From: Chloroflexi bacterium RBG_13_51_36 | GTDB taxonomy: Bacteria; Chloroflexota; Dehalococcoidia; GIF9; AB-539-J10 | Length of the DNA stretch: 64,000 nt | Reading direction: 5' to 3' | Assembly: GCA_001796515.1 (NCBI GenBank) | Contig: MGMS01000028.1 | Coordinates: 4,355-68,354, forward strand | In this document: one piece after another, positions 15,922 to 53,263 of the stretch | Numbering within the stretch: position 1 is the first letter of the stretch | Layout: each line of letters opens with the position of its first letter | Program-made: the position numbers and the translations under genes | The notes under the pieces: generated by a model | Told to the model about the DNA's origin: nothing | Databases searched by the model: none | Seen by the model: the letters and a program-made list of their open reading frames with translations, nothing else

Positions 15922-15935
15922 GAGCTTCCAGCTGC

Positions 15936-35804: not shown

Positions 35805-37253
35805 ATGGTGAAGCGGGATATGAAACGATCGGGCTTTTGTGAACGGCGGACCAAGATAGTGTGCACTATCGGTCCGGCTACTCGTTCAGCCGCTGTGATT
35901 GAGCAACTGATAAAGGCAGGCATGAATGTCGCCAGATTCAACCTATCCCACGGCACCTTCGAGGAACATCGCCGTTATATCCATACCGTGAGGAACCTAT
36001 CACGCCGTCTGGCAGTGCCTGTTGCCGTGCTTATAGATTTGCCCGGACCAAAGTATCGCACGGGCAAGCTGCAAGAGGGCCAAGTCAGACTCAAGAAGGG
36101 TGCGCGGGTTACGCTCACCACAAGGCAATTGAAGGGTGATGACGAGTTGATACCAGTTAATCTTTCTACGCTTCCTCAAGACATAGAAGTGGGAGATACC
36201 GTGTTGATCGATGATGGTGCCATGCAACTGAAGGTGATTGAGAAGCAAAGCACGGAGATTGAATGTAAGGTGATGGTCGGGGGCATACTCACCGAGGAGC
36301 GAGGGTTAGTGGTGCCTGGGATGCGGATTTCCAGTCCTTTTGTTACGGATATCCTGCGAGAATGCATTCTCTTCGCTGTGGAACAACGACCTGATTACCT
36401 GGCTCTGTCTTTCGTCAGCGAAGCCAACGATGTGAACAGTGCAAGAGCCATATTACGTGAGAACGATGTGGATATACCGATCATCGCCAAGATTGAAAGG
36501 GGCGTGGCGGTTGACAGATTTGACAGTATACTTCTTGCCAGCGATGGCGTTATGGTAGCGAGAGGAGACCTCGGTGTGGATATCCCCTTAGAGAGGGTAC
36601 CGCTGGTGCAGAAAGAGACTATCAGGAAATGTAATCAGGCAGGCAAGCCGGTAATTACCGCCACGCAGATGATGGAGTCAATGGTGAATGCCCCGCGGCC
36701 AACTCGTGCCGAGGTCACTGACGTCGCTAACGCCATATTTGATGGCACCGATGCAATCATGCTATCGGCGGAGACGTCTATCGGAAAATACCCTGTCCAA
36801 GCAGTTAGAATGATGGCGAGAATTGCTCAAGAAGCAGAAAACAAACTACCCTATGGCAAGATGCTAGTAGAAAGAGGAGAGTGGTTGAAACCGAAGACGG
36901 ACGAGCTAATAAGCTACAGTGCCTGTTATACGGCTCAGAGTCTCGGCGCAGTGGCGCTCGTGGCTTTTACGCAGTCTGGCAGCACAGCGGCGCGCGTGTC
37001 AAAATACCGTCCCAGAGTACCCATTGTGGCCATAACGCCCGATGCTGAAGTCGCGGGGAGATTAATGCTGCAGTGGGGTGTCTACCCTTTTCAGATAGCG
37101 CGAGCTTCATCGGTGGACGAGTTATTTGCGGCAGCGTCTAAGCTTTCCAGGGAACTGGGACTGGCCAAGTCGGGTGACTTGATAGTCATTACCGGTGGCA
37201 TTCCTATTGGGGTAGCTGGTTCCACGAATCTGCTCAAGGTGGAGAGAGTTTAG
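35805..37253 (+). CDS. pyk: pyruvate kinase
   Basis: RRTKIVCTIGP and the MVARGDLG motifs. 482 aa. Confidence 0.9.
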   Translation: MVKRDMKRSGFCERRTKIVCTIGPATRSAAVIEQLIKAGMNVARFNLSHGTFEEHRRYIHTVRNLSRRLAVPVAVLIDLPGPKYRTGKLQEGQVRLKKGARVTLTTRQLKGDDELIPVNLSTLPQDIEVGDTVLIDDGAMQLKVIEKQSTEIECKVMVGGILTEERGLVVPGMRISSPFVTDILRECILFAVEQRPDYLALSFVSEANDVNSARAILRENDVDIPIIAKIERGVAVDRFDSILLASDGVMVARGDLGVDIPLERVPLVQKETIRKCNQAGKPVITATQMMESMVNAPRPTRAEVTDVANAIFDGTDAIMLSAETSIGKYPVQAVRMMARIAQEAENKLPYGKMLVERGEWLKPKTDELISYSACYTAQSLGAVALVAFTQSGSTAARVSKYRPRVPIVAITPDAEVAGRLMLQWGVYPFQIARASSVDELFAAASKLSRELGLAKSGDLIVITGGIPIGVAGSTNLLKVERV

Positions 37254-37329: not shown

Positions 37330-39294
37330 TTACTCTGAGGACTTCAAAAACACAGCGGCTAGAGGTGGTAGGGTAATGGTCAAGGTATAGGGACGGCCGT
37401 GGCAGGGCTTTGGCGCTGCTTTCACCCCACCTAAATTGCCTTGACCGCTCCCTCTGTACTCCTTGGCGTCGCTGTTTAGTATCTCTCTCCAGAGTCCCGG
37501 CTGAGGCACTCCGATTCTGTAGTTGAAATGGGTCACGGGGGTAAAATTACACACCACAGCGATGACGTCAGCTCGAGATTGCCCCTTGCGGATGAGACTG
37601 ATGACGCTGTTCTCTATATCATTACAATCAATCCATTCGAAACCAGTCGAATCGAAGTCAACCTGGTAAAGAGCAGGCTGACTCCGATATACACGGTTTA
37701 AGTCACTGACCCATTGCCGAAGGCCGGAGTGGGGTGAGTACTGGAGGAGGTCCCATTCGAGGCTCTCATCATGTGCCCATTCCCGCCACTGGCCAAATTC
37801 ACTTCCCATAAACAAGAGTTTCTTCCCGGGCTGGGCATACATATATCCCAGTAGGAGCCTCAGGTTAGCGAATTTCTGCCAGTCGTCTCCCGGCATCTTT
37901 CCCAAAAGTGATCCTTTGGCATGTGTTACCTCGTCGTGGGAGAGCGGCAGGACAAAATTCTCAAAAAAGGCGTATAGCAGGCGAAATGTCAGGTTATTAT
38001 GATGATACTTTCGATATACAGGGTCATTGGTTATGTACTCGAGAGTATCATGCATCCAGCCCATGTCCCACTTCAGGCCGAATCCGAGGCCTCCCAAATA
38101 AGTTGGGCGAGATACCATGGGCCAGGCAGTTGACTCCTCGGCAATGGTTTGCACGCCAGGGCTTTCTCGATAGATCACCTCATTGAGGCGACGCAAGAAG
38201 GCGATGGCTTCCAGGTTCTCCCGCCCTCCATACTCATTGGGTATCCATTCGCCTTCTTTACGGCCGTAATCCAGATAGAGCATGGAGGCCACTGCATCTA
38301 CACGCAAAGCATCAACGTGATATTTGTCGAGCCAGAACAGTGCACTGCTAAGAAGGAAACTCTTTACTTCGTGGCGGCCATAATTGAAGATAAAACTGTT
38401 CCAATCCGGATGAATGCCCTGTCTGGGATCACCGTGTTCATAGAGATGGGTTCCATCGAAATACCCCAGCCCGTGTTCATCATTGGGGAAGTGAGAAGGC
38501 ACCCAGTCGAGGATGACACCTATGTCATACTGGTGGAGATAATCTACGAGGTACATAAAATCCTCCGGAGTGCCATAGCGGCTCGTGGGGGCGAAGTATC
38601 CTGTGGTCTGATAACCCCACGAACCATAGAAGGGGTGCTCCGTCACCGGTAGAAACTCAACATGGGTGAAGCCCGTTTGCTTCACATACTCGGCCAGCTT
38701 GGGAGCCAGTTCCCGGTAGCTAAGGTAGCGATTCCCTTCGTCGGGCACTCGTTGCCACGAGCCCAGATGCACTTCGTAAATAGAGATGGGAGCATTGAGG
38801 GCATTGTGAGCGTGTCGTGTCTCCATCCATCTCTGATCTCGCCAGTCATAATTCAAACCCCAGACAACAGAGGCTGTTTTGGGAGGCGTTTCATCATAGA
38901 AGGCGAATGGGTCAGCTTTCTCCGCACAATAGCCTCGATGGTGGGAGACAACATAATATTTGTAGATTGTGCCCTTAGCCACCCCAGGGACGAATCCTTC
39001 CCAGATGCCGGACTGTCCTTTTGACCGAAGCAGGTGACTTGACTTATCCCAATAGTTAAAGTCACCTACGACAGACACTTGCCTGGCACTGGGTGCCCAG
39101 ACGGCAAAATAGGTTCCCTCCACTCCATCCACCGTCATGGGATGACTTCCAAGCTTCTCGTAAAGGCGATGATGGGATCCCTCATTGAACAGGAAGAGAT
39201 CATCGCTGCTTAACAAGCTTACATCGTAGCGCACGGATTGAGCATTCGGCTTAGCCCTTGGAGATACCTCTTTTCCTTTAGTCTTCTCCTTCAT
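37330..39294 (-). CDS. glgB: 1,4-alpha-glucan branching enzyme (GH13_9)
   Basis: CBM48 N-domain plus GH13 catalytic regions (DWVPSHF, GFDGFRVDAV-like [16 protein letters not shown]). Start placed at ATG 39294, which forms an ATGA overlap with the otsB stop and follows a GAGGAAAG ribosome-binding site. The listed ORF extends 10 codons further. Confidence 0.9.
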
Positions 39295-40178
39295 CGTCTT
39301 TCCTCTAGTAACTGCTCCAGCCAATGATACAGTTGCTCGGGGGAGTCCAGGTAATAGTCTGCGGTGCTTGAGGGTGCAGCCTCGCCAATAAGGATGGAAA
39401 TACCGCCAATCCGGCGCAAAACCTGGAAACCATCTTCATCGGTGACGTCATCACCTGCAAAAATAGGCAGGTCTCCTGGGGTTCCATAGATTTCCATAAG
39501 CCACTCGACAGCCTTGCCTTTGTTCCAATCAACAAGTGGTTTCACTTCGAACACTTTCTTGCCTTCGGTCACCTGCAGTTTGTTTTTTATTTCTCCGTCT
39601 TCAATAGCTTCAAGGAGAAGTTTTTCTATTGTCGTTGGTGCGGTTCGTTTCGCCAGACGATAATGGAGGCTCAGAGTGAGCCCTTTGTTTTCGATCAGAA
39701 GGCCATCAATCCCCACCAGTCTTTCTTTGAGTTTTTGTTCCAGCCTTTTCATGTCAGGCTTGAACTGCCTAGCTATTGGATGGATGAATGTGGTTGTTTC
39801 AGGACTCCGCTCTTGACAATAGTAAGGAGGACATTCAATCTCCAAACCATGGTTGCCAGCGTATGTTATGTTTTCGAGTCCTATCAACATTTTGATGTCA
39901 TCCAGGCTCCGGCCGCTGACTATTACTAACCTGAACATGTTGTTGTGACTTATTTCTTCCAGCACCTCTCTTGATTCAGATGACAGGACGGCCATTTCGG
40001 GGCTAGCTGCTATCGGCGTCAGGGTACCGTCATAGTCCAGGAAAAGCAATATCCGCGTTGCTTTTTTGACCCGCTCGGCCAAGTCATGCCAGCACTGAAA
40101 CAAATGGCGCAATTCTGGTGCCTCACGGGAATTCTGCAATTCTTTTGGTGCTCCCGTCAACTCGGCATTAGAGTTCAC
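39291..40178 (-). CDS. otsB: trehalose-6-phosphate phosphatase (HAD-IIB)
   Basis: LDYDGTL motif I and TPP-family layout. Confidence 0.85.
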
Positions 40179-40218
40179 CGAGTAGGACCAAGGAGGTTCG
40201 GAGTTTCTTGGGGACGAA

Positions 40219-41694
40219 TTAGCTCACGGGCAGCCGAAATTTAGCTATTTCACAGATAATATTCCCGGCCCAAGAATAGATATCGTTTTCCTGCACAATT
40301 CCTCGCATTAACGACATCCGCTTCTGTCGTTCTTCTTCAGGCATATTAACCGCGACATCGATAGCCTGAGCTATATCGTCCACAGAATAGGGGTTGATCA
40401 GCAAAGCGTCAGTAAACTCCCGAGCGGCGCCGGCGAATCGGCTCAAGATGAGCACGCCGTCCCCATCAATTCGAGATGAGACGAACTCTTTGGCTACCAG
40501 ATTCATACCGTCATGGAGTGGACTAACAATGCAGAAGTTAGCCAGCCTTTCTAAAGCAATTAGAGTGACGGGAGAAAGATGCTCCTTAATGTAGAGTATG
40601 GGCTTCCAGCGACTTCTCCAGCGGCGCCAATTTATCTCTTCGACCAGTTCATCAACTTCTTCGTTTATTTTCTTGTATTCCTCCACATGGACTCTGCTTG
40701 GTTCAGCAGCCTGCACAAAGGTGAAGCGCCCTTCGTACTGGGGGTTCCTGCTCAGAAACAGGTCGATTGCTTTGAGCCTTTCAGGGATGCCCTTTGTGTA
40801 ATCCACGCGATCAATGCCGACACCGATGAATTCTTGCCTCAAATTATACTCGTGTCTCAGCCTGGCCATTTCTCCAGCCACTTCCTCCCTGCTGGCCCGA
40901 TCCGATATTCCGGCAAAATCAACGCTTATAGGGAAGGCACGCACCGAGGTGCCATGCCCACCTCTAACGATGGCATACTTTTCGCGTTCTATCCTGCATT
41001 CCAGAACGCGGTCGACAGTCTCCAGAAAGTTGTTGCAGTGGTAGAGGGTATGGAACCCTATGAGGTCGTTGGCCAGAAGTCCTTCCAGAATCTCCTCCTT
41101 CCAGGGACAGATCCTGAACGCCTCGTAGTTAGGCCATGGTATGTGCCAAAACTGGGCAGTAATTACGTTGAGGCACCGCTCTTTAATCATTCTCGAGAGC
41201 AGAGCAAGGTGATAATCCTGGATAAAGACAAAGGCAGCTTTATCACCTATCTCGGCGTGTACGGCATCGGCAAATCGCCGGTTGACTTCTTTATAGGTAT
41301 CCCAATCCTTCTGACGGAATATCGGTTTGACATAGACAATGTGACATAGAGGCCAGAGGGCCTGATTAGAGAAACCATCGTAATAACCTGCTTCTTCATC
41401 TTTCGATAGCCAGAGGCGCCGTAGAGTATATCGGGGGGCTTCAACAGGTACCTGGATCTTGCCCTCTTTGTCGACCACATCGGGGTCGGCATCTCCGCTG
41501 CCATGGGCGATCCACGTGCCCCCACAAACTTGCATCACCGGGTCCAGAGCCATGGTGAGCCCGCTAGCCGGACGTAGACATTTTATTTCTTCGCCAACCC
41601 AGCTATGGATATAAGGTTCCCTATTGGAGACTACCACAAACGGGTAATCCTTGAGCTTGTTACGGACCAACCCTTGCAGTTCTTCTTTAATCAT
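40219..41694 (-). CDS. otsA: alpha,alpha-trehalose-phosphate synthase (GT20)
   Basis: GT20 motifs VVVSNREPY and FIQDYHL. Start chosen at MIKEELQG (ATG 41694) by alignment. The listed ORF has a 33-codon extension and neither start has a strong RBS. Confidence 0.85.
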
Positions 41695-41808
41695 AATCAA
41701 CTCTAGACACTGGGAGTGGTACTGTATCTTCCTCGCCCATCCGGCGCAATGTGAAGAATGAGGTACCTCCAATGATTTGTCTAATTCTAACAAGCCCTGG
41801 AGACTATC

Positions 41809-43038
41809 TCAAAGATAAATAATGTCTTCTCTACGGCCCAGTGTAAGAAATATCAACATGTAGTCCCGAATTTCTCGAGTAATGAGGAAATGTTGACGGA
41901 CATGCTCCTTGCCATTACGCCCCAGCCAGTGACCATAATCAGGGTTAGCTAGAATCTGCCTTAGGGCATAAGCGGCTCCTTCTATACTGTGACATAGAAG
42001 CCCAGTAAGCTTGTCTTTCACTTGCAGGGGTATGCCACCGACGGCACTTGCTACTACTGGCTTTGCCTTCCACAGAGCCTCGGTTATGGTGAGGGCGAAG
42101 CCTTCTCTCAGGGATTTCTGCATAATTACGGTGGCTGCTCTCTGTAATGCATTGATGTCAACATCACTCCCGGGTGGTATATCCAATATATGGATGTCAG
42201 AGTTGTCTCCAGCCCGTTCTTTTACCTCTTTCAAGACTTCCTCAGACTCCGGGTCATCGGTGGCGGTGCCACCAGCCAGGACTAGCTGGCAGGCAAAATT
42301 CCTCCTTACCAGCTGAAACGCTCGGATCACTCCTAAGGGGTCTTTTAACCGGTCGAAGCGCGAGACCTGAAGAATCAATGGTTTGTCCGCGTCCAAACCA
42401 TATTTGGTCAGTACAGTCTCCAGGGCCTCAGGGGGCAATTCCTTATTCTTTTCGCTCAGAGGATCGATGGATGGCGGAGCGAAAAATTGAGGTATCGGCA
42501 ATTCTTGAGCAAAATTCGGGGAAGAGAAAATTCCCGCATCGTAATTGACTACAAACTGTTTCAGGAAGTTCCATACTCTGTTGTCCGGTTGAGAAATATC
42601 AATATGACATCGCCACACCCAGTCTTTACCAATATCGCTTTTCTTAGTTATCAGAGCTGCCGGCTGGGGGTCATGGATGAACAAGATATCTCCGGAGAAA
42701 TCAATCTGGCTTGCATTCTTTGCCGTCGTTTCCAGAAAAACAGAGAAATCGTCATCCGAGATAGACTCGACTTTACCATGAAGGGCATTATGAAATTTTT
42801 TCGTCACCTTAAAAAACTGTGCCTCACCCGGGATGACCTGCCATCTGACATCGACTCCCAGTTGGTTGAGCAGTGGCACAAGGCGAGATAGTATTTCTGC
42901 CACGCCTCCGCCCACAAAGGTGGAATTAATGTTCAGGATAGTCTTGCCTGACAATCTATTTGCCAGCATTCTTAGCTCTTCAATGTAGTTTTTGCCTACG
43001 ACGGATTCATAATCCTTAATGTTTATTTTGGGATTCAT
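41809..43038 (-). CDS. treT: trehalose glycosyltransferring synthase (TreT-like GT4)
   Basis: Blocks INSTFVGGGVAEIL, HDPQPAAL, WRCHIDIS, PPSIDPLSEKN, QVSRFD and REGFALTITEALWKAKPV match my recollection of archaeal/Thermotoga TreT. This is memory-based and not searched. Confidence 0.75.
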   Translation of the reverse strand: MNPKINIKDYESVVGKNYIEELRMLANRLSGKTILNINSTFVGGGVAEILSRLVPLLNQLGVDVRWQVIPGEAQFFKVTKKFHNALHGKVESISDDDFSVFLETTAKNASQIDFSGDILFIHDPQPAALITKKSDIGKDWVWRCHIDISQPDNRVWNFLKQFVVNYDAGIFSSPNFAQELPIPQFFAPPSIDPLSEKNKELPPEALETVLTKYGLDADKPLILQVSRFDRLKDPLGVIRAFQLVRRNFACQLVLAGGTATDDPESEEVLKEVKERAGDNSDIHILDIPPGSDVDINALQRAATVIMQKSLREGFALTITEALWKAKPVVASAVGGIPLQVKDKLTGLLCHSIEGAAYALRQILANPDYGHWLGRNGKEHVRQHFLITREIRDYMLIFLTLGRREDIIYL

Positions 43039-44402
43039 AGCCTTTTCTCACAAAGCTTAATGATGATTTCTCTGAGATTTTCCATGGTGTAATTGTAAGG
43101 GTCAAGTCGGGTAATTTGCTCCGCCAATTCTTTTTCTTCCAGGCAGTCCTCAAGCCAGAGGGAAAAATCGTTTGTGCCCCGCTGCAGTCTTAATTTGGCC
43201 TCGAAAATATGGAAGTAGAGTGAGCCTATGCTGATTCTCTTTAGTATGCCAACAAATTCCCGCAGGTTATGAGCGACGTATGGAGTAGGCAGGACAATGC
43301 TTATGGACTTGATGAAATGAAATTCGTTGCCCGGTGGTGCCTCACGTTCGTGGGTTATCTGAGCCAAAGAATCTCGAATGACCCCGACAATCATTTGCCT
43401 CAGTGCCCCGATAGTGGGAAATTCAAAGGTATCAATACTTGCTAGCCTTTCAGCTAAGATATCGTAACCCAGGGCATCTTGTACCCATAAAGCAAAATCA
43501 TTGGTTGGCTCAGGAGTAAGAAATTGGTATTCCTCAACAAAATTATGGGTGTGGTAATAGACCACTGCATCAGGAACCTCATTTAATCTGCTGACCAACT
43601 GGGACAAATTGCGGGCGTTCAGGCCAGTCAATTCCTTCAGATGAAGTCTGGTGGAAAATTGAAACGGCTCCTTGGCCACTTTGGGTTGTTTTCCATAATT
43701 GACGATAGTAGTCTGCATTAATCTGGTATTAGGGATGATGATTATACTGCCATCCAGGGTTTTTATCTGGGTATTTCTCCAGGTTATCTCCTCCACGCGA
43801 CCTTCCTCCCCAGATTCCAGTCTAATACAATCACCGGCCTTGATTTGCTTCTGTTGTGTTAATTGAAGCCCGGAAACCAAGCTGGGGAAAATGTCACGAA
43901 GGGCTAGAATGGCAATTACTATGACCGCAATTGCAGCGATAAGGATGGGTGTCGTAGGCAATCTCCAAAGTTCCAAAAGGATCAGGATACCGATCACTAT
44001 AATCGCTACCTGAATAATGCTCGTAGTGACCGTGATTGCCCTTTGAGGGACTTTTGCCTTATTCAGATAAAGCTGGACGAGATCCCTGCCCAGGCGGATC
44101 AAAATCCAGCCAAGGTGAGCGATGAAAATGCTGGCCAGGATTTTGCCACCGTCGCTCTTCCATCGTGGCGTGAGGACTGAAACCTGAATAGCAATGTAAG
44201 CGCCTAGTATTAAGAGCCAGTGGAGAAATGGTCCTCTGGTGACTGAAATGATGATTTTGCCAACTTCACTCTTTCTTTCCTTCAGCCAGCGCTCGAGGGC
44301 ATTATAGGCGATCCGTCTGAGCCACAAGGAAACAAACAAGACGCCGAGAAAAACCAACACCGGCACCGCTATGTTTGCTCTTACCCAGTCCATAACGTCC
44401 AT
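43035..44402 (-). CDS. MscS-family mechanosensitive channel with a ~200-aa C-terminal extension made of two tandem copies of an uncharacterised domain
   Basis: N-terminal TM helices, an MscS beta-domain (IKAGDCIRLESGEEGRVEEITWRNTQIKTLDGSIIIIPN), then two ~85-aa repeats sharing the pattern NL+E...Y[FY]H...NDF[AS]LW[VL].D.L...LAE. ATGA overlap with treT. Confidence 0.8.
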   Translation of the reverse strand: MDVMDWVRANIAVPVLVFLGVLFVSLWLRRIAYNALERWLKERKSEVGKIIISVTRGPFLHWLLILGAYIAIQVSVLTPRWKSDGGKILASIFIAHLGWILIRLGRDLVQLYLNKAKVPQRAITVTTSIIQVAIIVIGILILLELWRLPTTPILIAAIAVIVIAILALRDIFPSLVSGLQLTQQKQIKAGDCIRLESGEEGRVEEITWRNTQIKTLDGSIIIIPNTRLMQTTIVNYGKQPKVAKEPFQFSTRLHLKELTGLNARNLSQLVSRLNEVPDAVVYYHTHNFVEEYQFLTPEPTNDFALWVQDALGYDILAERLASIDTFEFPTIGALRQMIVGVIRDSLAQITHEREAPPGNEFHFIKSISIVLPTPYVAHNLREFVGILKRISIGSLYFHIFEAKLRLQRGTNDFSLWLEDCLEEKELAEQITRLDPYNYTMENLREIIIKLCEKRL

Positions 44403-44434
44403 AGCCCTCTATAATGTCTCCCCCAGTCTGTCAG

Positions 44435-45862
44435 TCACTGCAGCTGCTGAACCCTGGACATCGTCCGCGCTCGTAGATAGATTTCTTGGTATTTCCTGGC
44501 CGAAGTTCTCCAGGAGAAATCTAGCTTCATGTTATGTCTCATCAAGTTTTTCCAGTCCATCTGGTGGTAGAAGCTTTCCTCGGCTCTTTTTATCGCCTCC
44601 TGCATTTCGGAGGCGGTGAAATCTTGAAACACAAAGCCGTTTCCGTTTCCGTCAGTCAAATCCTTCACTGTGTCAGCCAGCCCTCCGGTATGTCGTACCA
44701 CAGGAATGGCACCGTAGCGCATGGCGATTAACTGACCCAATCCGCAAGGTTCAAAGCGCGAGGGCATCAGGAATATGTCGCATCCGCCGTATATGAGGCG
44801 AGCTAATCGTTCATCCCTGGCAACGAACACCGAGATACGGTCGCGGTATTTTAGTGCTGCCTCGCCAAGCAATCTATGGTAGTGCTCCCTTCCCTCACCA
44901 AGAATAACCAATTGGGCTCTTGTTTGTGCAATAAGTCGGTCAATGGACTGAAGTATTAGGTCAATCCCCTTCTGCTCTTCGAGACGAGACACCATGCCAA
45001 TCAGAGGGATGTCAGGGTTCTGTGGCAGCCCAGCTTTTTTTTGCAGGGCAAGTTTGTTCCCAACTCTTCTTTCTACTGTAGAGGAATCGTAGTTTCTTTC
45101 CAGGTAGAGGTCGGTAGCTGGGTTGTACTCATCACTGTCAATGCCATTGATTATGCCGAAAAGTTCCTTGCTACGATAGTCTAATAGGTGCTCCAGGCCC
45201 ACACCATATTGCGGCGTCAGTATCTCTGAGGCGTAAGTAGGACTGACTGTGGTCAGTATGTCAGCAAGAAGAATTCCCTGGCTCATGAAGTTTAGGGATG
45301 GTTCGGGAGAACTAGGCGAGATAGATTTCTGCCACACGGAAGAGAGTCCAGACTCTAGGAAAAACTGCTGGTCAAAGGAGCCCTGATAAGCCAGGTTGTG
45401 AATGGTAAATATGGAAGGCACCTTCATCTTTGCTTTCTTGAGCCACAAAGGGATCAGTGCAGTATGCCAATCATGGCAGTGAATAATATCTGGATGAAGG
45501 CCGGCCTGGGAGATGAGGGCCGGGACGGTCAGTGAAAAAAAGAGAAAACGTTCTAAGTCGTCACGTGTATAGATCTCCTTGGTTCCAAAGTAATGGTCGT
45601 TTTCCACCAGATATACAGGTATCCTCTTTTTTAAGCTGGTTACTTTCAGGGAAACTGGTTCGTAGTTTCCCATGAAATTGACAGTAATATTCCCCTTCGG
45701 AACGTTCTGGGCAGGCACTGTAATGTCACTGTACCTGGGCAACATCAAGTGAAGCTCATGTCCTAAATCATGGAGAGCTATGGCAAGAGAGCTTGTGACA
45801 TCTGCGAGTCCACCTACCTTAGCTAAAGGGAAGGCCTCAGCGGCAACGAACAGGACCTTCAT
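44435..45862 (-). CDS. glgA: glycogen synthase (GT5)
   Basis: MKVLFVAAEAFPLAKVGGLADV (KxGGL motif) and a GT-B fold. Confidence 0.9.
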   Translation of the reverse strand: MKVLFVAAEAFPLAKVGGLADVTSSLAIALHDLGHELHLMLPRYSDITVPAQNVPKGNITVNFMGNYEPVSLKVTSLKKRIPVYLVENDHYFGTKEIYTRDDLERFLFFSLTVPALISQAGLHPDIIHCHDWHTALIPLWLKKAKMKVPSIFTIHNLAYQGSFDQQFFLESGLSSVWQKSISPSSPEPSLNFMSQGILLADILTTVSPTYASEILTPQYGVGLEHLLDYRSKELFGIINGIDSDEYNPATDLYLERNYDSSTVERRVGNKLALQKKAGLPQNPDIPLIGMVSRLEEQKGIDLILQSIDRLIAQTRAQLVILGEGREHYHRLLGEAALKYRDRISVFVARDERLARLIYGGCDIFLMPSRFEPCGLGQLIAMRYGAIPVVRHTGGLADTVKDLTDGNGNGFVFQDFTASEMQEAIKRAEESFYHQMDWKNLMRHNMKLDFSWRTSARKYQEIYLRARTMSRVQQLQ

Positions 45863-45870
45863 CGTTGGGG

Positions 45871-47145
45871 TCAGGCTCTGAGAACCTCTTTGCCTCCTAC
45901 GGAACTACCACTGGGAATGGAGAGTGTAGAGAAATCACTCTCCTTTACCCCAGGGTCAATCTTGCAGTTTCGCCCGACTCTCAATCCCTGGGGTAGCCTT
46001 GCTGCGATGCCAATTACGGTGATGCCGGAATTTAAATAATCGGGTTCGTCCTTGTTGGGAGTATAGTCCTCGCCGCAGCCAATCCAACATCCGGAGCCAA
46101 TGTAGCATTCTTTATCAATGATTGAGCGCTGCACAACGGCGCCTTGAGCGATAGTAGTATCATGAAAAATTATAGAGTCAATCACATGGGCTCCCTCCTC
46201 CACGTATACATGAGGGGAAAGGACGGAACTAACCACGCTGCCGTTTATGATACAGCCATTACTGACGAGGCTTCTGTTAATCTGAGCCCTAGGTCCCACT
46301 TTTACAGGGGGCATATCTACGGAAAGCGTTTTCACCCCGCTCTCAGGATCATAGAGATTAAACGGCGGCAAATCGACAACCAGGTCCATATTGGCTTGCC
46401 AGTATGCTTCAACTGTGCCGACATCGCGCCAGTAGCCTTCATACTTATAGCCATAAATCTGGTATCTGTCTATTGCATCCGGTATGACCTCGCTGCCAAA
46501 ATCCTGCAAGCCGCGCTGATGGGCTTCTTCCAGAACGTTGAAGAGGATATCCTTGTTGAAAACGTAAATGCCCATAGAAGCCAGGTTGCTTTTTGGCTGT
46601 GATGGTTTCTCTTCAAAGGCAACTACCTTCTTATTGCCATCGAGAAGCATAATGCCAAACCGATTTGTTTCGTACCAGGGCACTTCAGTTACCCCAATAG
46701 TAATAGCGGCTCCCTGTTGGCGGTGAAACTTAATCATCTCTTCGTAGTGCATGGTATAGACATGGTCTCCCGAGAGGACGAGAACTTCATCAACGCGGCT
46801 ATCTGTTATGAATTGCAGGTTGTGATAAACAGCGTTGGCGGTGCCTTTGTACCAGTGCATCTCCCCATTGGTGCTTACGAAGGGGTAGAGCAGAGTGATT
46901 CCTCCCGCTACACGATCGAGGTCCCATGGTTTGCCGACGCCGATATGGCGTGCTAATGAGCGAGGGTTATATTGGGGTATGACAGCTACTGTGTTGATCC
47001 CGGAGTTAATACAATTGCTCAAAACAAAGTCAATTATTCGGTATTTGCCGCCGAAGGGGACAGCTGGCTTAGCGCGGTCGTGGGCCAACACACTCAGTCT
47101 TTTCCCTTCTCCGCCGGCAAGGACTACCGCCAATACCTTTTTCAT
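45871..47145 (-). CDS. glgC: glucose-1-phosphate adenylyltransferase
   Basis: [23 protein letters not shown] and a C-terminal left-handed beta-helix. Confidence 0.9.
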
Positions 47146-47253
47146 TTACGTTTTGCCTGACCCAGCCAAATCGTAACAGCCTCGTAATTATTGTAGCGGT
47201 TCGGAGTTGGTATGTCTAATTCTACTCGAAATGGTCTCAGGTCGTGGCCAATT

Positions 47254-49455
47254 CTACTTACGGGCTGCCGGTATATACATTTGCTCGACATATTCCTTCA
47301 ACATGCGCCGTGTGCAGAAGCGCGGCACAATCGAGTTAATTGCCTCTTTCACCATATGTACCCAACCGTGGGGTAGCCCATTTCTGTCTCGTTGGTAGTA
47401 GAGAGGCACAATTTGCTCTTCCAGAAGACGGTAGAGCGCCTCGGCATCCGATTTATCTTCCAGCATCGGGTCATATGCATCGACCTCATCTCCGATGGCC
47501 CAGCCATTAAGGCCATTATAGCCTTCGTACCACCAGCCATCTCGAACGCTGAGATGGAGGACACCATTCACCGTGGCTTTCATTCCGCTGGTGCCGCAAG
47601 CTTCATAAAGGCGGCGAGGCGTATTTAACCACACGTCTACCCCCTGAACTAGGTAGTGAGCCATATGTATATCGTAGTCTTCAACGAACGCTATTCGCCC
47701 CTGGAATTCACGGTTCGTGGCTAGACCGTATACATCGCGCAACAGTTGCTTTGAAGGAAGATCCGCCGGGTGAGACTTGCCGGCGAAGATTATCTGGACT
47801 GGATGCCATCTATCTGTGACAATACGTTTGAGATGTTCTATGTCATGGAAGATTAGCTCTGGCCGCTTATATGCTGCAAAACGGCGGCCAAAGCCAATGG
47901 TCAGAGTATCTTGATCAAGCAAAGAGCCCATGACCAGCACCTGCCTGGCTTTGCATTCACGTTCAGTGGAACATTGGCGAGCTCGCTCTACCATGGCGCC
48001 GATGAGTTTACGCTTGAGAATTTGATGCACCGCCCAGAGTTCCTCGTCGGGGATATTTAGCACAAGCTCTCGGAGGCCGATGTCATCATATCTTTCTGAG
48101 ACATCTTGGCCCAGGTGTTTCTCGTAAAGGCGGCCCATCTCGCGCGCAACCCAGGTGGGTACATGAATTCCATTGGTGATGTAAGAGATCGGCACTTCGT
48201 CTTCTTTAACTTCTGGCCAGAGCGCATGCCACATCCTGTGAGTAACTTTTTCGTGAAGCTGGCTGACGGCATTGCGATGGTCAGCCAGCCTTAAGGCGAG
48301 CACCGTCATATTGAAGTTCTGATCGGATGGCCCATCCTGTCGTCCCAGCTCCAGGAATGTTTCCCGATTGATTCCCAGGGACTCCCAATAACTGTAGAGG
48401 TATTTATCTACAAGTGATAGGGGGAAGACTTCATGCCCTGCAGCGACTTTAGTATGGGTGGTGAAAACTGTAGCTGTCTGCACTTTTCGGAGGGCTTCGG
48501 GGAAGGTGGAACCTTTCTCTACCTCTTCCCGGACACGTTCCAGCATCATAAAGGCGCAATGTCCTTCGTTAGCATGCCATACGGAGGGTTTGATGCCCAG
48601 AGCTCGCAAGGCACGGACCCCACCAACTCCCAGCACGATTTCTTGCTGGATACGTTGCTCTTGGTCAGCGGTATAGAGACGAGCACAGAGTTGTCGCTCC
48701 TGAGGCATATTGCCTTCAACATCAGAACATAGCAGATAAAGGTTGTCCCGACCCAAGCGCACCTGCCATACCCCGATATAGAATGGCGTGTCACTCAGGT
48801 TAAGCTGAATCAGCGGGCCGCACCACTTAGAACGAGGGACTGGATTGATTGGGGTGATTGGCGCTTCATCAAAATCCAATTGTCCATAGACCTCTTCCTG
48901 CGAGCCCTCAGCGGAGATACGCTGATGGAAATACCCCTGCGGGTACATGAAGCCGACCCCGACGAGCGGCAGTCCCAGGTCACTGGCCTCCTTACAGATG
49001 TCGCCGGCTAGAACTCCCAACCCTCCGGCATATATGGGAAGGGAATTATGTATGGCAAACTCCATGGAAAAGTAGGCAACAGGGCCGTCTAAAACGTTGG
49101 GATGCTTGGTAGAAAACCAGCTGTGTTTGTCTGACATGTCGGCATCGAAGGCTGATATTACGGAATCATATAGATTGAGAAAAACAGGGTCAGTGGCAGC
49201 AGCCTCGAACTTATCAGTGCTGATTTCCCGTAATTGTTTGACCGGGTTGTGTCCACTCAGCCTCCATAGTGGATAGTCCAGGACACGGAACAGCTCACGC
49301 GCCTTGGGATGCCAGCTCCACCATAGATTATTGGCTAGCTCTTCCAGTCGGCCTATTCGTTCCGGTAACTTCAATTCTGATAACATGTTCTCTAAGATAT
49401 GTTGTTTAGACGCTCGCTTGGTATCCGTCACCAACCGTGAGGCAGGTTTTGCCAA
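47254..49455 (-). CDS. glgP: alpha-glucan phosphorylase (GT35, GlgP/maltodextrin phosphorylase-related short type)
   Basis: 733 aa. WWSWHP N-terminal motif of the short alpha-glucan phosphorylase family plus PLP-site regions. TTG start. Confidence 0.9.
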   Translation of the reverse strand: MAKPASRLVTDTKRASKQHILENMLSELKLPERIGRLEELANNLWWSWHPKARELFRVLDYPLWRLSGHNPVKQLREISTDKFEAAATDPVFLNLYDSVISAFDADMSDKHSWFSTKHPNVLDGPVAYFSMEFAIHNSLPIYAGGLGVLAGDICKEASDLGLPLVGVGFMYPQGYFHQRISAEGSQEEVYGQLDFDEAPITPINPVPRSKWCGPLIQLNLSDTPFYIGVWQVRLGRDNLYLLCSDVEGNMPQERQLCARLYTADQEQRIQQEIVLGVGGVRALRALGIKPSVWHANEGHCAFMMLERVREEVEKGSTFPEALRKVQTATVFTTHTKVAAGHEVFPLSLVDKYLYSYWESLGINRETFLELGRQDGPSDQNFNMTVLALRLADHRNAVSQLHEKVTHRMWHALWPEVKEDEVPISYITNGIHVPTWVAREMGRLYEKHLGQDVSERYDDIGLRELVLNIPDEELWAVHQILKRKLIGAMVERARQCSTERECKARQVLVMGSLLDQDTLTIGFGRRFAAYKRPELIFHDIEHLKRIVTDRWHPVQIIFAGKSHPADLPSKQLLRDVYGLATNREFQGRIAFVEDYDIHMAHYLVQGVDVWLNTPRRLYEACGTSGMKATVNGVLHLSVRDGWWYEGYNGLNGWAIGDEVDAYDPMLEDKSDAEALYRLLEEQIVPLYYQRDRNGLPHGWVHMVKEAINSIVPRFCTRRMLKEYVEQMYIPAARK

Positions 49456-49583
49456 TTGTTTCCAGTTGGTCGGCTATTATAACAGAACACTGGCTGGGTC
49501 ATCATGCGGGCAGACAACCTTGTTCCTGTGAGCTAGGAGACGGATTATCCCACATGTCCGACTGTCTACAGTCGTGTCCGATC

Positions 49584-49610
49584 CTGACTCAGCCGTGGTT
49601 ATGATATAAT
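49584..49610 (+). promoter_or_regulatory. putative extended -10 promoter for the standalone domain gene
   Basis: CTGACT (-35-like) at 49584-89, a 15-nt spacer, TGaTATAAT at 49602-49610, then a GGGAGG ribosome-binding site at 49628-33 and ATG at 49643. Confidence 0.4.
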
Positions 49611-49642
49611 GCAAACAAGTATCAACTGGGAGGTGTGTGAAC

Positions 49643-49954
49643 ATGGTCAGGATTATCAAGATTAGCCACGAGGAGGCAAAGAGACGTTTAGAAGATGTGC
49701 CGGATGGTAAACGCTTCTGGTGTCATGATGGTAAGGTTATTAGAAATCTCAAAGAGCTCAGTAAGGCTTTGAATGATATGAGTGACGAAACCTTCCATTA
49801 TCATTTGAGCGGGGCGAGAAACGATTTCAGCAAGTGGATTAGAGAAGTGGTGGGAGATGATAAACTGGCAGAGGACTTCAGTAAAACCAAATCTCGTACG
49901 CAGGCCAGCCAGGTAGTGGCAACGAGCATTTCCTTCCTTCAGCGTAAGATGTAG
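49643..49954 (+). CDS. hypothetical 103-aa protein consisting of one copy of the MscS-C-terminal repeat domain
   Basis: RNLKELSKALNDMSDETFHYH...NDFSKWIREVVGDDKLAED matches the motif of both MscS C-terminal repeats. ATG 49643 is preferred over the listed GTG 49637 because of RBS spacing. Confidence 0.6.
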   Translation: MVRIIKISHEEAKRRLEDVPDGKRFWCHDGKVIRNLKELSKALNDMSDETFHYHLSGARNDFSKWIREVVGDDKLAEDFSKTKSRTQASQVVATSISFLQRKM

Positions 49955-50080
49955 GGGAGTCGTGAGGCTTCCTCAGAGATGCACCGTATCGGGGACCTAA
50001 ACTAGGCTGGGAATTATCACACTTCGCTCTCTGAGTGTTTGGTATCACTGTCCAGGGTAGGGAGAATTGTTCTTCTACCA

Positions 50081-51376
50081 CTACTGTGCAAATAGTCTAT
50101 CTTCGAGTTTGCTTCTGATTTCCCTGGCAGCAACGGCGCGGCGATAATAGTCCCGTTTCGTCTCTTCGTGGGCCCCACTCTTATTTATGGCCCGGTAGGC
50201 ATTGACCACAGTTCGACATTGGTCAAGCAAGCCCATGTGGATGAGGTTAATGTCCCACATGGGGCGATTGCTGGCCCACCACATCTGGCAACTGTGCTCA
50301 GCCCGGTCCAGAAGTCCCCGGGCAATAGTGGCGGAGCGCCGACTTTCCTCATTATCGGCGCACTCCAGCGCTTTGTTCGTCAAATCAATGCATATGCCCA
50401 GGTGTTCCCACTGAAGCCTGTGCACCTCATTATTCTTGTCTTGCCAAAGAGGGTAATAGTTGGCGACTTTTATGTCATCGGCTGTCGTGCTCCATGAGGA
50501 TGGCTTAGGTTCTACCGCTGGCGCTGAGGGAAAGAGATCAAGAAGTTGGCTGACCGTGACCATCTGGATTTTGCCGGCAGTTTCGCCATTCGCCAACAAA
50601 GCGGTATGTTGTCCAGCCAGGACATTAGCTTGCTTAACCTCTTCAAGGGGTTCTGCAGCCGATTCTAGCTCCTCGTAAACCTTAGCCAAGAATATCCTCT
50701 CCCACCCCTGGATGTGGTGGCCGTAAGTTTCAGCATCCATAGCCGTGACCACATAAATATTCTCTCTGTTACCCTGCCACTGTTCCAGGTGGGCAATGAA
50801 CTCCTTGGCTCCCAGGGCTTGGAAGCTTATCCTATTGCTGAGCACATCATCGCGGAAGAACACCGCTATGTCCTGCCCATGACACTCTGCTCTGTAAATG
50901 ATATCCATAGGCCACTGTGAGGGGCAGGCGATGCCGCTCACGACAATCCAGCGATAACCTGACTTGGTGACGGGCTGGAGGATGTCCTTGCTGTAGCACA
51001 TCTCTGGGGGGAAAAATCCTTGAGGAGCGTAGGACCTACCGAAGAAGCGGCCATTGGTTTGCGCGTTTAAGTTTATCTGTCTTTCTACTTCCTCTCTGGG
51101 TATCAAGGGCAGAATAGGGTGGTACTTGCCGGTTCCGGTGAATTCAAGCTGACCACTCTCGGCGAGGCTTCTCAAGCCATCGATTACATCTCTGTGGCCA
51201 CAGTCTATCAGCATGTCTGTCAGGACCCCATTGAAGTTTATGGTTAACCTGGCGTTCGGATACTCTTCAAAAACGTGGATCAAGGGACGATAAGATTCGT
51301 TGCATATCTTCCGTAGCACCGATGGTACTTGGGTCGGTGGCTGATAGAAATGCAGCAACTGAGCCCAATAGATCAT
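50081..51376 (-). CDS. glycoside hydrolase family 57 protein (alpha-glucan-active; amylopullulanase/branching-enzyme-like)
   Basis: N-terminal LHFYQPP motif characteristic of GH57 and TAMDAETYGHH in the catalytic region. A GGGAGG ribosome-binding site lies upstream. Confidence 0.8.
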   Translation of the reverse strand: MIYWAQLLHFYQPPTQVPSVLRKICNESYRPLIHVFEEYPNARLTINFNGVLTDMLIDCGHRDVIDGLRSLAESGQLEFTGTGKYHPILPLIPREEVERQINLNAQTNGRFFGRSYAPQGFFPPEMCYSKDILQPVTKSGYRWIVVSGIACPSQWPMDIIYRAECHGQDIAVFFRDDVLSNRISFQALGAKEFIAHLEQWQGNRENIYVVTAMDAETYGHHIQGWERIFLAKVYEELESAAEPLEEVKQANVLAGQHTALLANGETAGKIQMVTVSQLLDLFPSAPAVEPKPSSWSTTADDIKVANYYPLWQDKNNEVHRLQWEHLGICIDLTNKALECADNEESRRSATIARGLLDRAEHSCQMWWASNRPMWDINLIHMGLLDQCRTVVNAYRAINKSGAHEETKRDYYRRAVAAREIRSKLEDRLFAQ

Positions 51377-51622: not shown

Positions 51623-53263
51623 TCAATTCAGATTCCACTCATTCACACTGCACTGCCCGTCGGTGTTGAATCCTGTGGCGACGACAGCCGCGTCAGATTC
51701 GAGCCCTACCGTGTGATAATAGCCTGCGGTAACCTGGACAATGTCTGCCCACGCGTCGACATTGCACTGTCCGCTGTTGTTGAGTCCCACAGCGACCACG
51801 GTGCCATCGGACTTGAGTCCTACGGTGTGATAGTAGCCTGCGGAGACTTGCGTGATGTTTTCCCAGCTACCGACACTGCATTGTCCGAAGTCATTCCATC
51901 CGACGGCGACCACGGTGCCGTCAGTCTTAAGCCCCAAGGTATGATATCCGCCTGCGGCAACCTGCGTGATGTTTTCCCAGCCGTCGACGCTGCACTGCCC
52001 GAAGTAGTCATCACCCATGGCGACCACTGTCCCGTCGGACTTGAGCCCCAGGGTATGTCTATAGCCTGCCGCGACCTGGACGATGTCATACCATTCATCT
52101 ACATCACACTGTCCGTAGCCATTGTCTCCCACGGCAACTACCCTACCGTCAGACTTGAGCCCTACGGTATGCCTATAGCCTGCAGTGACTTGAACGATGT
52201 CCGTCCAGTTACCGACATTGCACTGTCCGTAGTTGTTGAGTCCAACGGCGACCACCGTGCCATCGGTCTTAAGCCCGACGCTATGATATCCGCCTGCAGC
52301 GACGTTGATAGTGTTCTCCCAGCCATCGACATCGCACTGTCCGCTGGTGTTGAGTCCAGTAGCCACCACCGTGCCATCAAACTTGAGTCCCACAGTGTGA
52401 TACCCGCCTGTGGCAACCATCGGGTCGACTTCGAAGTTGGCCGTGACGGTCACAGCTTGACCGGGCATGGTGAATGTAGTCTCCACTGCATTCGCATCAC
52501 TGAATATGCCTGCTGGTGCCGTCCAGTTGACGAAATGATAGCCTTGGCTGGCTTCCGCTTGAATATTGACTACAGTTCCTTCCGCATAAGGTGACCCATC
52601 GGTCATGTCGATCGCTGTGCCGCTACCCATGGGAGATACTGCCATGGTAAGTTCGTAGGTCGGTATCAGTTCGAAATTGGCGGTGACAGTTACAGCTTGA
52701 CCGGGCATGGTGAAAGTAGTCTGTGTTTCATCTGTATTGCCGAACACACCGGCTGGCGCTGTCCAATTAACAAATCCGTAACCTAAGTTGGCTACGGCTT
52801 CTATACTGATCAAAACTCCTTCCTGGTAAGGGCCGGCATTCGTTTCATCGGTTGCCGTTCCGCTGTCGAGGGGAGACAGAGCCATGGTCAATTCGTAAGT
52901 TGGCACCGGCGTCAATTCCTGAAAGATGGCAGAGATTTCGTAATCGTCTTGCATGTCGATGACAGTCACGGGACTCATGACACCCGCTACGGGTTCACCC
53001 AGCCACTGAACAAACTCGAACTCCTCACTCGGGCTGGCCGCGAGGTTGACATCTGTACCCGCAGCAATATCGAATATGATCTCCATCTCACCCGGACCGA
53101 TCGCCGTCTCTTCTCCATTGACTGTGACGGTAACTGAACCTCCAGCAGTGCTGGAGATACTGAGGGCGTATGGAACAGGTTCCTCAGGTGCGGGAGTAGA
53201 TCCACAGCCTATCACCCCGGCAATCAAGGCTGCCATAATCAAAAAGATACCAATTCTTTTCAT
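51623..53263 (-). CDS. secreted/lipoprotein with two tandem Ig-like 'bacterial repeat' domains and a C-terminal RCC1-type beta-propeller
   Basis: Lipoprotein-like signal MKRIGIFLIMAALIAGVIGC. Two ~82-aa repeats follow (YELTMA[LV]SP..SGTA.D...G.Y.EG....I.A.A..GY.FVNWTAPAG.F......TTFTMPGQAVTVTANFE). Six or more RCC1 blades come next (GYHTVGLKSDGTVVAVG.N..GQC.V..W). A GGAGGAGG ribosome-binding site lies upstream. Confidence 0.8.
   Translation of the reverse strand: MKRIGIFLIMAALIAGVIGCGSTPAPEEPVPYALSISSTAGGSVTVTVNGEETAIGPGEMEIIFDIAAGTDVNLAASPSEEFEFVQWLGEPVAGVMSPVTVIDMQDDYEISAIFQELTPVPTYELTMALSPLDSGTATDETNAGPYQEGVLISIEAVANLGYGFVNWTAPAGVFGNTDETQTTFTMPGQAVTVTANFELIPTYELTMAVSPMGSGTAIDMTDGSPYAEGTVVNIQAEASQGYHFVNWTAPAGIFSDANAVETTFTMPGQAVTVTANFEVDPMVATGGYHTVGLKFDGTVVATGLNTSGQCDVDGWENTINVAAGGYHSVGLKTDGTVVAVGLNNYGQCNVGNWTDIVQVTAGYRHTVGLKSDGRVVAVGDNGYGQCDVDEWYDIVQVAAGYRHTLGLKSDGTVVAMGDDYFGQCSVDGWENITQVAAGGYHTLGLKTDGTVVAVGWNDFGQCSVGSWENITQVSAGYYHTVGLKSDGTVVAVGLNNSGQCNVDAWADIVQVTAGYYHTVGLESDAAVVATGFNTDGQCSVNEWNLN
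52431..52922 (-). repeat. two tandem ~246-bp intragenic repeats encoding the duplicated Ig-like domains
   Basis: Copy 1 at 52431-52676 and copy 2 at 52677-52922 align at roughly 75% nucleotide identity (ggtgacggtcacagcttgaccgggcatggtgaa... versus ggtgacagttacagcttgaccgggcatggtgaa...). Confidence 0.5.

Follow-up and report, generated by a model that had tools for sequence, protein, structure and literature searches.

We describe herein a protein of 455 amino acids (aa) encoded on the minus strand (44402..43035) of a 64,000-nucleotide (nt) stretch of contig MGMS01000028.1 from Chloroflexi bacterium RBG_13_51_36, hereafter the window. The protein joins the membrane and beta domains of an MscS-type mechanosensitive channel to a DUF5752 domain with the fold of the archaeal protein OrfY, and its gene overlaps the start of treT, the gene for a trehalose glycosyltransferring synthase. 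DUF5752 and treT are neighbours in Bacteria and Archaea alike, commonly together with otsA and otsB, and in the window this trehalose unit is lodged within a run of glycogen genes. The region probably represents an alpha-glucan/trehalose supra-operon of an uncultured, Dehalococcoidia-type metagenome-assembled genome (MAG). Our overall reading, to which we give a probability of roughly 0.6, is that it serves osmoadaptation and carbon storage as one module, with the DUF5752 domain as a partner of TreT. For two elements of this picture, physical contact between DUF5752 and TreT and real channel activity of the fusion, we consider the odds to be about even.

A mechanosensitive channel fused to the OrfY fold

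The N-terminal half of the protein (aa 1-241; 44402..43680, minus strand) contains five predicted transmembrane (TM) helices in a YnaI-like arrangement, including the pore helix TM3a/b, and ends in the MscS beta domain (PF00924, 64.7 bits, aa 170-237). Residues 87-241 align to residues 30-183 of Escherichia coli MscS, a stretch that runs from TM1 through TM3 into the beta domain; the match ends precisely at the border with the MscS alpha/beta domain. No Pfam match to the MscS alpha/beta domain (PF21082) or to the C-terminal barrel was found in the fusion; DUF5752 begins 4-8 residues past the beta domain and fills the C-terminal half (aa 242-455; 43679..43038, minus strand, stop codon at 43035..43037), where PF19027 matches from residue 245 with 219 bits over profile positions 2-208 of 208. 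The gene was originally predicted to encode an ordinary MscS channel, a description which has to give way to that of an MscS(TM + beta)-DUF5752/OrfY fusion devoid of the alpha/beta domain.

The only solved relative of DUF5752 is PDB 4CSO, "The structure of OrfY from Thermoproteus tenax", which was recovered by phmmer (3e-22) and by Foldseek, and the DUF5752 half of the fusion has this OrfY fold. In a full-length AlphaFold2 (AF2) model (predicted local distance difference test, pLDDT, 81), five YnaI-like membrane helices and the beta domain are followed by a unit of a long beta-hairpin and helices that occurs twice, and Foldseek matched the model to YnaI and MscS. The DUF5752 domain is an internal duplication, each half carrying the pattern F...A...H-x(12-17)-(N)DFxxW, and residues F6, A22, H43, W65 and W175 (domain numbering) are invariant across 38 diverse members. 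The positive-inside rule, together with the topology of MscS, would place the DUF5752 half in the cytoplasm.

With regard to the pore, the hydrophobic constriction of E. coli MscS is retained (L105 is replaced by V, and L109 is kept as L), and channel activity of the fusion, as judged from its residues, is plausible, not assured. Close homologues of the fusion all come from Dehalococcoidia/Chloroflexi MAGs. The exact sequence is without a counterpart in the protein collection, where a different start was probably called.

DUF5752 and treT as a conserved pair

The DUF5752 domain was searched against 1.84 billion cluster representatives, and 809 families were recovered at E <= 1e-3. Free proteins of 210-230 aa prevail among them, MscS fusions (about 457-470 aa) make up a minority, and trehalose-phosphatase-DUF5752 and maltokinase-DUF5752 proteins represent further architectures. 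For gene neighbourhoods, one genome per GTDB species was scanned. At least 549 species possess a relative, and the best-scoring 80 loci, which are not a random sample, were analysed, with their open reading frames (ORFs) annotated by BLASTP against the window's own proteins. These loci, denoted below by L numbers where they have to be told apart, come from Chloroflexota (Dehalococcoidia and others), Nitrospirota/Thermodesulfovibrionia, Thermodesulfobacteriota, Omnitrophota, Planctomycetota including Brocadiaceae, and Actinomycetota.

In every locus with at least 1 kb of downstream sequence (70/70), treT is the next same-strand gene after DUF5752, and an otsA or otsB gene is no more than 8 kb away in 70 of the 80 loci. 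MscS fusions occur in 47/80, and a separate MscS gene was detected in 10. Nine of the separate MscS sequences were inspected, and all are full-length (about 350 aa) and have the usual alpha/beta domain; six belong to unfused Omnitrophota/Planctomycetota loci and three to Nitrospirota loci, where they adjoin the fusion. The typical order in Omnitrophota/Planctomycetota is [mscS]-otsA-otsB-DUF5752-treT, and the orders in Chloroflexota/Nitrospirota/Thermodesulfobacteriota are otsA-otsB-[MscS~DUF5752]-treT or [MscS~DUF5752]-treT-otsA-otsB. The pairing extends to Archaea: in a Thermoproteus MAG, treT and the DUF5752 gene (216 aa) share 4 nt, and in Pyrobaculum, where the pair adjoins tpsp, a glycosyltransferase (GT) of family GT4 and a 194-aa protein, the overlap is 8 nt.

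Both the phosphatase~DUF5752 and the maltokinase~DUF5752 fusions are immediately followed by treT. On one metagenome contig (L091; ENA ERZ21828390 contig-100_7306, 248..9499), the genes encode TreS, a GT4/5 enzyme, [maltokinase~DUF5752], TreT, a GT2 enzyme, a TM-only mechanosensitive-channel protein (233 aa, PF05552) and a free DUF5752 protein. The locus thus holds two DUF5752 copies, and its channel protein and free DUF5752 look like a split version of the fusion. The invariant adjacency to treT, combined with frequent translational coupling and the variety of trehalose-related proteins fused to its N-terminus, suggests most simply that DUF5752 is a partner dedicated to TreT, whether as an accessory or as a regulatory subunit. 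In the window, translational coupling is indicated by the ATGA overlap between the fusion gene and treT.

Given the 70/70 adjacency, the presence of otsA or otsB in 70/80 loci and the further fusions that precede treT, the conserved unit is otsA-otsB-DUF5752-treT, with or without mscS. The original prediction had pictured the trehalose genes as independent parts fused into the glycogen operon; instead, they travel as a pre-existing module, which is found in many phyla without glycogen genes. In a neighbour-joining tree of the domains, which carries no support values and is indicative only, all fused forms make up one clade, with the free bacterial forms as its sister and the archaeal forms as the outgroup. 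This topology is consistent with one fusion event and subsequent lateral spread.

Two side observations concern individual loci. A trehalose-phosphatase~DUF5752 gene at L092 (JGI 3300020214, 8001..10671) precedes a treT that is broken into two ORFs (158 and 240 aa), which reflects either a frameshift/pseudogene or an assembly error. Furthermore, the OtsA ORF has about 740-764 aa in L014-L019, L021 and L062-L086 (Nitrospirota, Omnitrophota, Planctomycetota), about 250 aa more than that of the window despite a separate otsB; the extra region could be a degenerate phosphatase domain such as that of TPSP (synthase/phosphatase of trehalose-6-phosphate).

Identity of the TreT enzyme

The treT gene (43038..41809, minus strand) had first been recognised from motif matches, and profile and structure comparisons uphold that call. 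Its product carries the TreT-specific N-terminal domain (PF21269, aa 36-178, 182.4 bits against a cutoff of 27). It matches the crystallised TreT of Thermoproteus uzoniensis (6zj4) with E 9e-122 and 410 bits over aa 8-403, at 49% identity over 394 residues, and the TreT of Pyrococcus horikoshii (2x6q) over its full length with E 2.5e-97 and 329 bits. The next-best structures are generic GT4 enzymes, matched at E ~1e-13 or weaker and in the C-terminal half only. Both the E-x7-E motif EGFALTITE (E312-E320) and the R/K nucleotide-binding motif VSRFDRLKDP align with those of the two crystallised enzymes. The score against NF041139, an equivalog model tuned to the TreT of Thermococcales, is below its cutoff (359 bits against 775), a result that bears on equivalog status alone. 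Comparison with characterised TreTs hence gave no sign of a different GT4 enzyme, and the product of 41809..43038 is, by homology, a TreT-family enzyme closer to the Thermoproteus than to the Pyrococcus type.

GenBank OGN96680.1 equals the window TreT exactly and bears only the deposited name "glycosyl transferase family 1", a public annotation which can now be corrected to treT. We also considered the GT4 protein as an orthologue of the GT that activates TPSP in T. tenax. This candidate was ruled out, as the Pyrobaculum counterpart of that GT has no TreT N-terminal domain; the counterpart coexists with a separate OrfY-TreT pair.

Organization of the gene cluster

The eight genes follow one another on the minus strand in the order glgP-glgC-glgA-"mscS"-treT-otsA-otsB-glgB, at the positions and with the two ATGA junctions that were originally predicted. 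The cluster measures about 12.06 kb (49386..37330), in agreement with the predicted 12 kb, although the coordinates given for it then spanned 14 kb. Genes were called by Pfam and NCBIfam profile scores against family cutoffs, and we regard the assignments across the cluster as highly secure. All four enzymes of the ADP-glucose glycogen route (GlgC, GlgA, GlgB and GlgP) score above curated family cutoffs. The glgP-like alpha-glucan phosphorylase of family GT35 (49455..47254) contains DUF3417 (PF11897) and the phosphorylase domain (PF00343) and reaches 800.7 bits against TIGR02094 (cutoff 191.7); its probable true start is the ATG at 49386, which yields 710 aa, the length called in L089 and L090. 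The glucose-1-phosphate adenylyltransferase gene glgC (47145..45871; PF00483) passes TIGR02091 barely, with 426.3 bits over a cutoff of 424.9, and glgA (45862..44435; PF08323) encodes an ADP-glucose-type glycogen synthase (TIGR02095, 534 bits, cutoff 328). Downstream of the fusion gene (PF00924, PF19027) and treT, the OtsA/OtsB route is represented by a GT20 synthase and a HAD-IIB phosphatase as adjoining, separate ORFs. The trehalose-6-phosphate synthase gene otsA (41793..40219; PF00982, 399.5 bits) reaches 426 bits against TIGR02400, under the equivalog cutoff of 565, and may start at TTG 41793 or ATG 41694. The trehalose-6-phosphate phosphatase gene otsB (40178..39291; PF02358) scores 163 bits against TIGR00685 (cutoff 68), and its start is also uncertain. 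The last gene, glgB, encodes a GH13 branching enzyme of 654 aa (NF003811, 1009 bits, cutoff 741); its ORF spans 39324..37330, or 39294..37330 from the ATG that overlaps the otsB stop and serves as start in the relatives L001, L008 and L009, where the protein likewise has 654 aa.

It might be argued that this co-directional run is an accidental juxtaposition, in which the glycogen operon, the trehalose module and the channel gene are transcribed independently. The gap of 108 nt between glgP and glgC and the uncertain start codons of otsA and otsB leave room for such a view, and a consensus promoter/terminator scan was uninformative, its counts being equal to shuffled expectation. On the other hand, only 8 nt separate glgC from glgA and 32 nt glgA from mscS, treT/otsA and otsA/otsB are at most 15 and 40 nt apart, and there are two 4-nt overlaps, at mscS/treT (ATGA, 43038..43035) and at otsB/glgB (ATGA, 39294..39291, given the glgB start of the relatives). 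The order is identical in relatives down to 77% protein identity, and the DUF5752-treT adjacency holds in 70/70 loci across phyla. Since the order recurs in relatives of 77-87% identity and its DUF5752-treT core across phyla, we do not attribute it to chance, and independent transcription of the parts is very improbable.

The flanks also bear out the first description for the most part. Convergent to the cluster lie pyk (35805..37253, plus strand), a DeoC/LacD-family aldolase (34764..35678, plus) and a ROK kinase (33678..34736, plus), followed by the GH77 enzyme MalQ (32010..33533, minus), all assigned by Pfam, and these neighbours keep the same order in L001 and L009. The upstream glycoside hydrolase of family GH57 (51376..50081, minus, 431 aa; PF03065, 139 bits) is indeed present; nevertheless, it is about 690 nt from glgP (625 nt from the TTG start of the ORF), and a 103-aa gene on the opposite strand stands in between. 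Because of this gap and the gene within it, GH57 is a conserved neighbour that is not demonstrably on the same transcript as glgP. Genes for glgX, treS, pep2 and glgE are absent from the window's cluster, and an Rfam scan of the entire window returned no RNA family. Plus-strand ORFs antisense to the cluster (40579..41349, 38149..38652, 46144..46602, 42487..42891 and 38662..39024) have no Pfam match and were rejected as spurious.

Glycogen genes around the module

The whole gene order, including the convergent pyk-aldolase-ROK genes and malQ, was found only in the window's own clade (L001, L009, L011, L089 and L090), in which the fusion protein is 77-87% identical. A second Dehalococcoidia clade shows a different arrangement, namely glgC, a GH57 branching enzyme, glgA, ROK, GH57, [fusion], treT, GH57, a protein without assignment and a GH57 amylase, with no otsAB. 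In two loci (L003 and L005), GH57 homologues of 56-63% identity stand directly upstream of the MscS-DUF5752 gene. As the two glycogen gene orders differ, the module has joined glycogen genes at least twice. A third arrangement (L006, GCA_011170325.1) consists of otsA-otsB-[MscS~DUF5752]-treT and no glycogen genes. Nearby (13732..21103) are genes for a Na+/H+ exchanger with TrkA_N, a mannosyl-3-phosphoglycerate synthase (Osmo_MPGsynth), a HAD phosphatase and a sugar-1-phosphate nucleotidyltransferase, which by their annotation would form a compatible-solute island.

A conserved protein of about 630 aa without a Pfam match (L003 13924..15834, L005 13923..15827, L090 10354..12243) always adjoins a 409-aa GH57 protein in the glycogen/TreT clusters of other Dehalococcoidia; it does not occur in the window.

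The recurrence of the module within glycogen genes, in two arrangements, raises the question of whether it serves carbon storage alone. Trehalose would then be a soluble reserve or an intermediate of glycogen turnover, a reversible TreT (trehalose + ADP -> ADP-glucose + glucose) would refill glycogen, and the channel-like protein would be an anchor or scaffold. Such a scheme would suit the ROK kinase and MalQ that adjoin the cluster, as well as the DUF5752~maltokinase protein beside TreS, a constellation indicative of a trehalose-to-alpha-glucan route, and Pyrococcus TreT is reversible according to a statement quoted in PMC13597711. However, glg or GH57 genes were found in only 10/80 loci, and most loci keep MscS without them; distantly related phyla repeatedly combine the module with an MscS-type gene, whether fused or free, and in L006 the module stands beside other compatible-solute genes. 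Moreover, OtsA/OtsB form a committed synthetic route, and the window TreT is nearer to the Thermoproteus than to the Pyrococcus enzyme, the T. tenax enzyme being reported as unidirectional in passages of PMC3634074 and PMC13597711. We therefore consider a role confined to carbon storage unlikely, and retain the reading which combines storage with osmoadaptation.

Relation to known trehalose, channel and glycogen systems

An operon in which tpsp, a GT gene and a mechanosensitive channel (MSC) gene stand together had been named as an analogue from Thermoproteus in the original prediction. That operon exists: in T. tenax, an MscS-related membrane protein, a GT and TPSP are encoded in one operon, msc-gt-tpsp, with experimental hints for a role in stress, and the proposed logic is that trehalose is made under stress and vented via the channel on down-shock (Zaparty et al., 2013, PMC3634074). 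The same work stated that no other archaeal or bacterial genes of trehalose-6-phosphate synthase/phosphatase (TPS/TPP) occur in a comparable operon, and regarded the arrangement as unique to Thermoproteales (PMC3634074). Contrary to this statement, comparable bacterial operons are common in uncultured lineages. The window resembles msc-gt-tpsp in that an MscS-related protein, a GT4 enzyme and a TPS/TPP route are found together. It differs in three respects: TPSP is fused in T. tenax, whereas otsA and otsB are separate in the window; the T. tenax GT is an activator of TPSP, whereas the GT4 of the window is a TreT orthologue; and the T. tenax MSC is a TM-only protein of 197 aa, whereas that of the window is a 455-aa fusion. 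In a comparison by hhalign, the 194-aa protein of Pyrobaculum (the presumed MSC) had no similarity to the fusion family (probability 0.8%).

The closer archaeal analogue is orfY-treT, a pair which adjoins the msc-gt-tpsp set in Pyrobaculum. In T. tenax, the orfY-treT pair has reportedly been described before, by Kouril and co-workers in 2008. As in the Thermoproteus MAG and Pyrobaculum, DUF5752 lies directly upstream of TreT in the window, on the same strand and with a stop/start overlap. On the other hand, OrfY is a free protein of 216 aa there and the C-terminal half of a 455-aa membrane protein here; in the window the pair is linked with otsA/otsB and lies inside a glycogen operon, a second, half-size paralogue is present, and the organism is a mesophile, a bacterium of groundwater, and not a hyperthermophilic archaeon. 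Because its TPS/TPP genes are unfused and its GT4 enzyme is TreT, the window cluster is not of the msc-gt-tpsp type; it is of the orfY-treT type, with a new architecture.

As a member of the MscS family, the fusion shares the TM3 pore helix and the beta domain (PF00924), and its five-helix membrane domain is like that of YnaI. Family members with extra sensor domains include YnaI and MscK (in the PDB) and the bCNG channels, which are fused to a cyclic-nucleotide domain, and attachment of a regulatory domain to the cytoplasmic C-terminus is not without precedent. What sets the fusion apart is that the alpha/beta domain (PF21082) and the barrel, which build the cytoplasmic cage, are replaced by DUF5752.

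The TreTs of Thermococcus litoralis and Pyrococcus horikoshii (2x6q) belong to the same enzyme family as that of the window and are described as reversible. Their genes lie in a trehalose/maltose ABC-transporter cluster that is not known to include OrfY. With the glgBXCAP operons, the window shares co-directional glgP, glgC, glgA and glgB, the difference being that its glycogen operon is interrupted by a four-gene trehalose/channel module. The actinobacterial TreS-Pep2-GlgE system is similar in so far as trehalose and alpha-glucan metabolism are genetically linked, and the maltokinase-DUF5752 gene beside TreS and TreT on the metagenome contig of L091 offers a further parallel. A literature search returned no publication on DUF5752, on OrfY with trehalose or on 4CSO in this context, and none describing the bacterial module, either for Dehalococcoidia or for TreT/OtsA with mechanosensitive channels.

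A second, half-size DUF5752 gene

The 103-aa gene between GH57 and glgP (49643..49954, plus strand), overlooked at first, encodes a single DUF5752 repeat (F..A..H..NDFxxW; PF19027, 32.1 bits, cutoff 23). It is divergent from glgP, and its product keeps the full motif set and is 100% identical to the hypothetical protein A2Z77_01485 of Chloroflexi bacterium RBG_13_51_36. Homologues number 288; of the 120 listed, nearly all have 103 aa. L089 and L090 have the gene at the same divergent position, and the 77%-identity relative L001 lacks it. A chance ORF was considered and ruled out by the 288 conserved homologues and the conserved position. The protein may dimerise and thereby mimic the two-repeat OrfY fold.

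When the divergent intergenic region (49387..49642) was aligned with those of L089 and L090, conserved -10-like boxes were found on both strands, TATAAT at ~49476..49481 (minus) and a TATAAT-like box at ~49604..49609 (plus), which may be regarded as putative promoters. A strong ribosome-binding site, GGAGGTG, precedes the 103-aa gene. No inverted repeat or palindrome was present in this region.

A proposed working of the module

In the scheme we propose, GlgP would free glucose-1-phosphate from glycogen and GlgC would convert it into ADP-glucose, the presumed sugar donor, which would be divided among storage by GlgA/GlgB, TreT and OtsA/OtsB. TreT would form trehalose from nucleoside-diphosphate (NDP)-glucose and free glucose, and OtsA/OtsB would form it from NDP-glucose and glucose-6-phosphate via trehalose-6-phosphate. 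MalQ and GH57 could supply glucose, and the ROK kinase could balance glucose against glucose-6-phosphate. With GlgA/GlgB providing the opposite flux, carbon would be movable between glycogen and the compatible solute trehalose. The 455-aa protein would act as an MscS-type tension sensor or valve whose alpha/beta domain has been swapped for an OrfY-fold partner of TreT; the osmotic state of the membrane (tension or crowding) might be relayed to TreT, or trehalose might be vented on down-shock, or both. The osmoadaptation and storage reading fits the comparative context, in which L006 keeps the module beside mannosylglycerate genes and a Na+/H+ exchanger.

A more specific version of this scheme can be offered only tentatively, and we think it possible rather than probable. 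DUF5752/OrfY would be a pseudo-twofold domain that binds TreT or senses trehalose, the MscS fusion would be a one-protein osmosensor through which membrane tension or cytoplasmic crowding turns the synthase on or off directly and maybe gates trehalose release, and the 103-aa half-domain would be a soluble competitor or adaptor.

Several points weigh against the picture as a whole. The pore-helix glycines of E. coli MscS (G101, G104, G108 and G113) are replaced by bulky or charged residues in the fusion, which renders conductance uncertain. The Nitrospirota loci hold a full-length MscS beside the fusion, and for this reason the fusion may be a sensor instead of a release valve. With the best 80 of at least 549 species analysed, the linkage of remote family members was sampled only anecdotally. 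Since trehalose also plays a part in redox stress, cold and desiccation and serves as a carbon store, an osmotic role is one option among others. Finally, 4CSO was titled "ORFY protein, transcription factor" by its depositors, and the divergent 103-aa paralogue sits in the classic position of a regulator.

These last two points lead to a different proposal, according to which DUF5752/OrfY is a DNA-binding, possibly trehalose-responsive transcription factor, with the 103-aa paralogue controlling the divergent glgP...glgB genes and the fused copy tethered to or sequestered at the membrane under the control of tension. Such a regulator would suit the position of the 103-aa gene, which in three genomes diverges from glgP across a region with conserved -10 boxes on either strand. 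Yet no palindrome or operator was recognised in 49387..49642, structure comparison recovered no DNA-binding fold for DUF5752, and a literature search found no publication behind the label of transcription factor. That the domain is fused to a phosphatase, a kinase and a channel of heptameric type, with treT always abutting translationally, is more typical of a subunit or regulatory domain than of a DNA binder. A role in transcription is accordingly doubtful in our view, and the domain is better regarded as a probable partner of TreT.

Other features of the window

Two minus-strand ORFs between GH57 and mutL (51623..53263 and 53757..54425) encode RCC1 repeats and/or divergent InlB B-repeat (Flg_new_2) domains. 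They look like an insertion in this genome, because GH57 is directly followed by mutL and uvrD in L089. Between mutL and uvrD, a segment of low GC content (56560..58793; 0.45-0.46) holds weak matches to IS1/IS240 DDE transposases (57265..58113, minus), a 255-aa ORF without a Pfam match and a DUF2299 protein; this segment is absent between mutL and uvrD in L089 and is therefore probably a mobile-element insertion. A single ORF of 582 aa (19546..21294, plus) combines an N-terminal shikimate kinase with a C-terminal 3-dehydroquinate synthase, an aroK-aroB fusion. The GC-rich region 12844..18880 (minus; 0.55-0.58) encodes an Opp/Dpp-type ABC transporter composed of an SBP_bac_5 binding protein, a pair of permeases and a pair of ATPases that carry oligo_HPY tails. 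As listed, the ORFs of these ATPases share about 290 nt, and one start is probably mis-set.

Implications

A cluster of glycogen and trehalose genes is in itself unsurprising; the value of the present one lies in the OrfY-TreT linkage and in the MscS-OrfY fusion, which jointly give a concrete way into the question of how bacteria tie osmotic sensing at the membrane to the making of compatible solutes. DUF5752/OrfY, a family known through its structure, hereby gains a specific context as a neighbour of TreT in both Bacteria and Archaea and as a domain fused to trehalose-related proteins. The fusion could serve as a "Rosetta stone" that links the msc-gt-tpsp and orfY-treT sets of Thermoproteus into one system, and this system is widespread in uncultured anaerobic phyla of the subsurface. 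Were the more specific, one-protein osmosensor version of the scheme to hold, this would be the first case of a mechanosensitive channel wired physically to an enzyme of solute synthesis. For the ecology of Dehalococcoidia, the cluster points to a glycogen-to-trehalose shuttle that may serve both stress response and storage.

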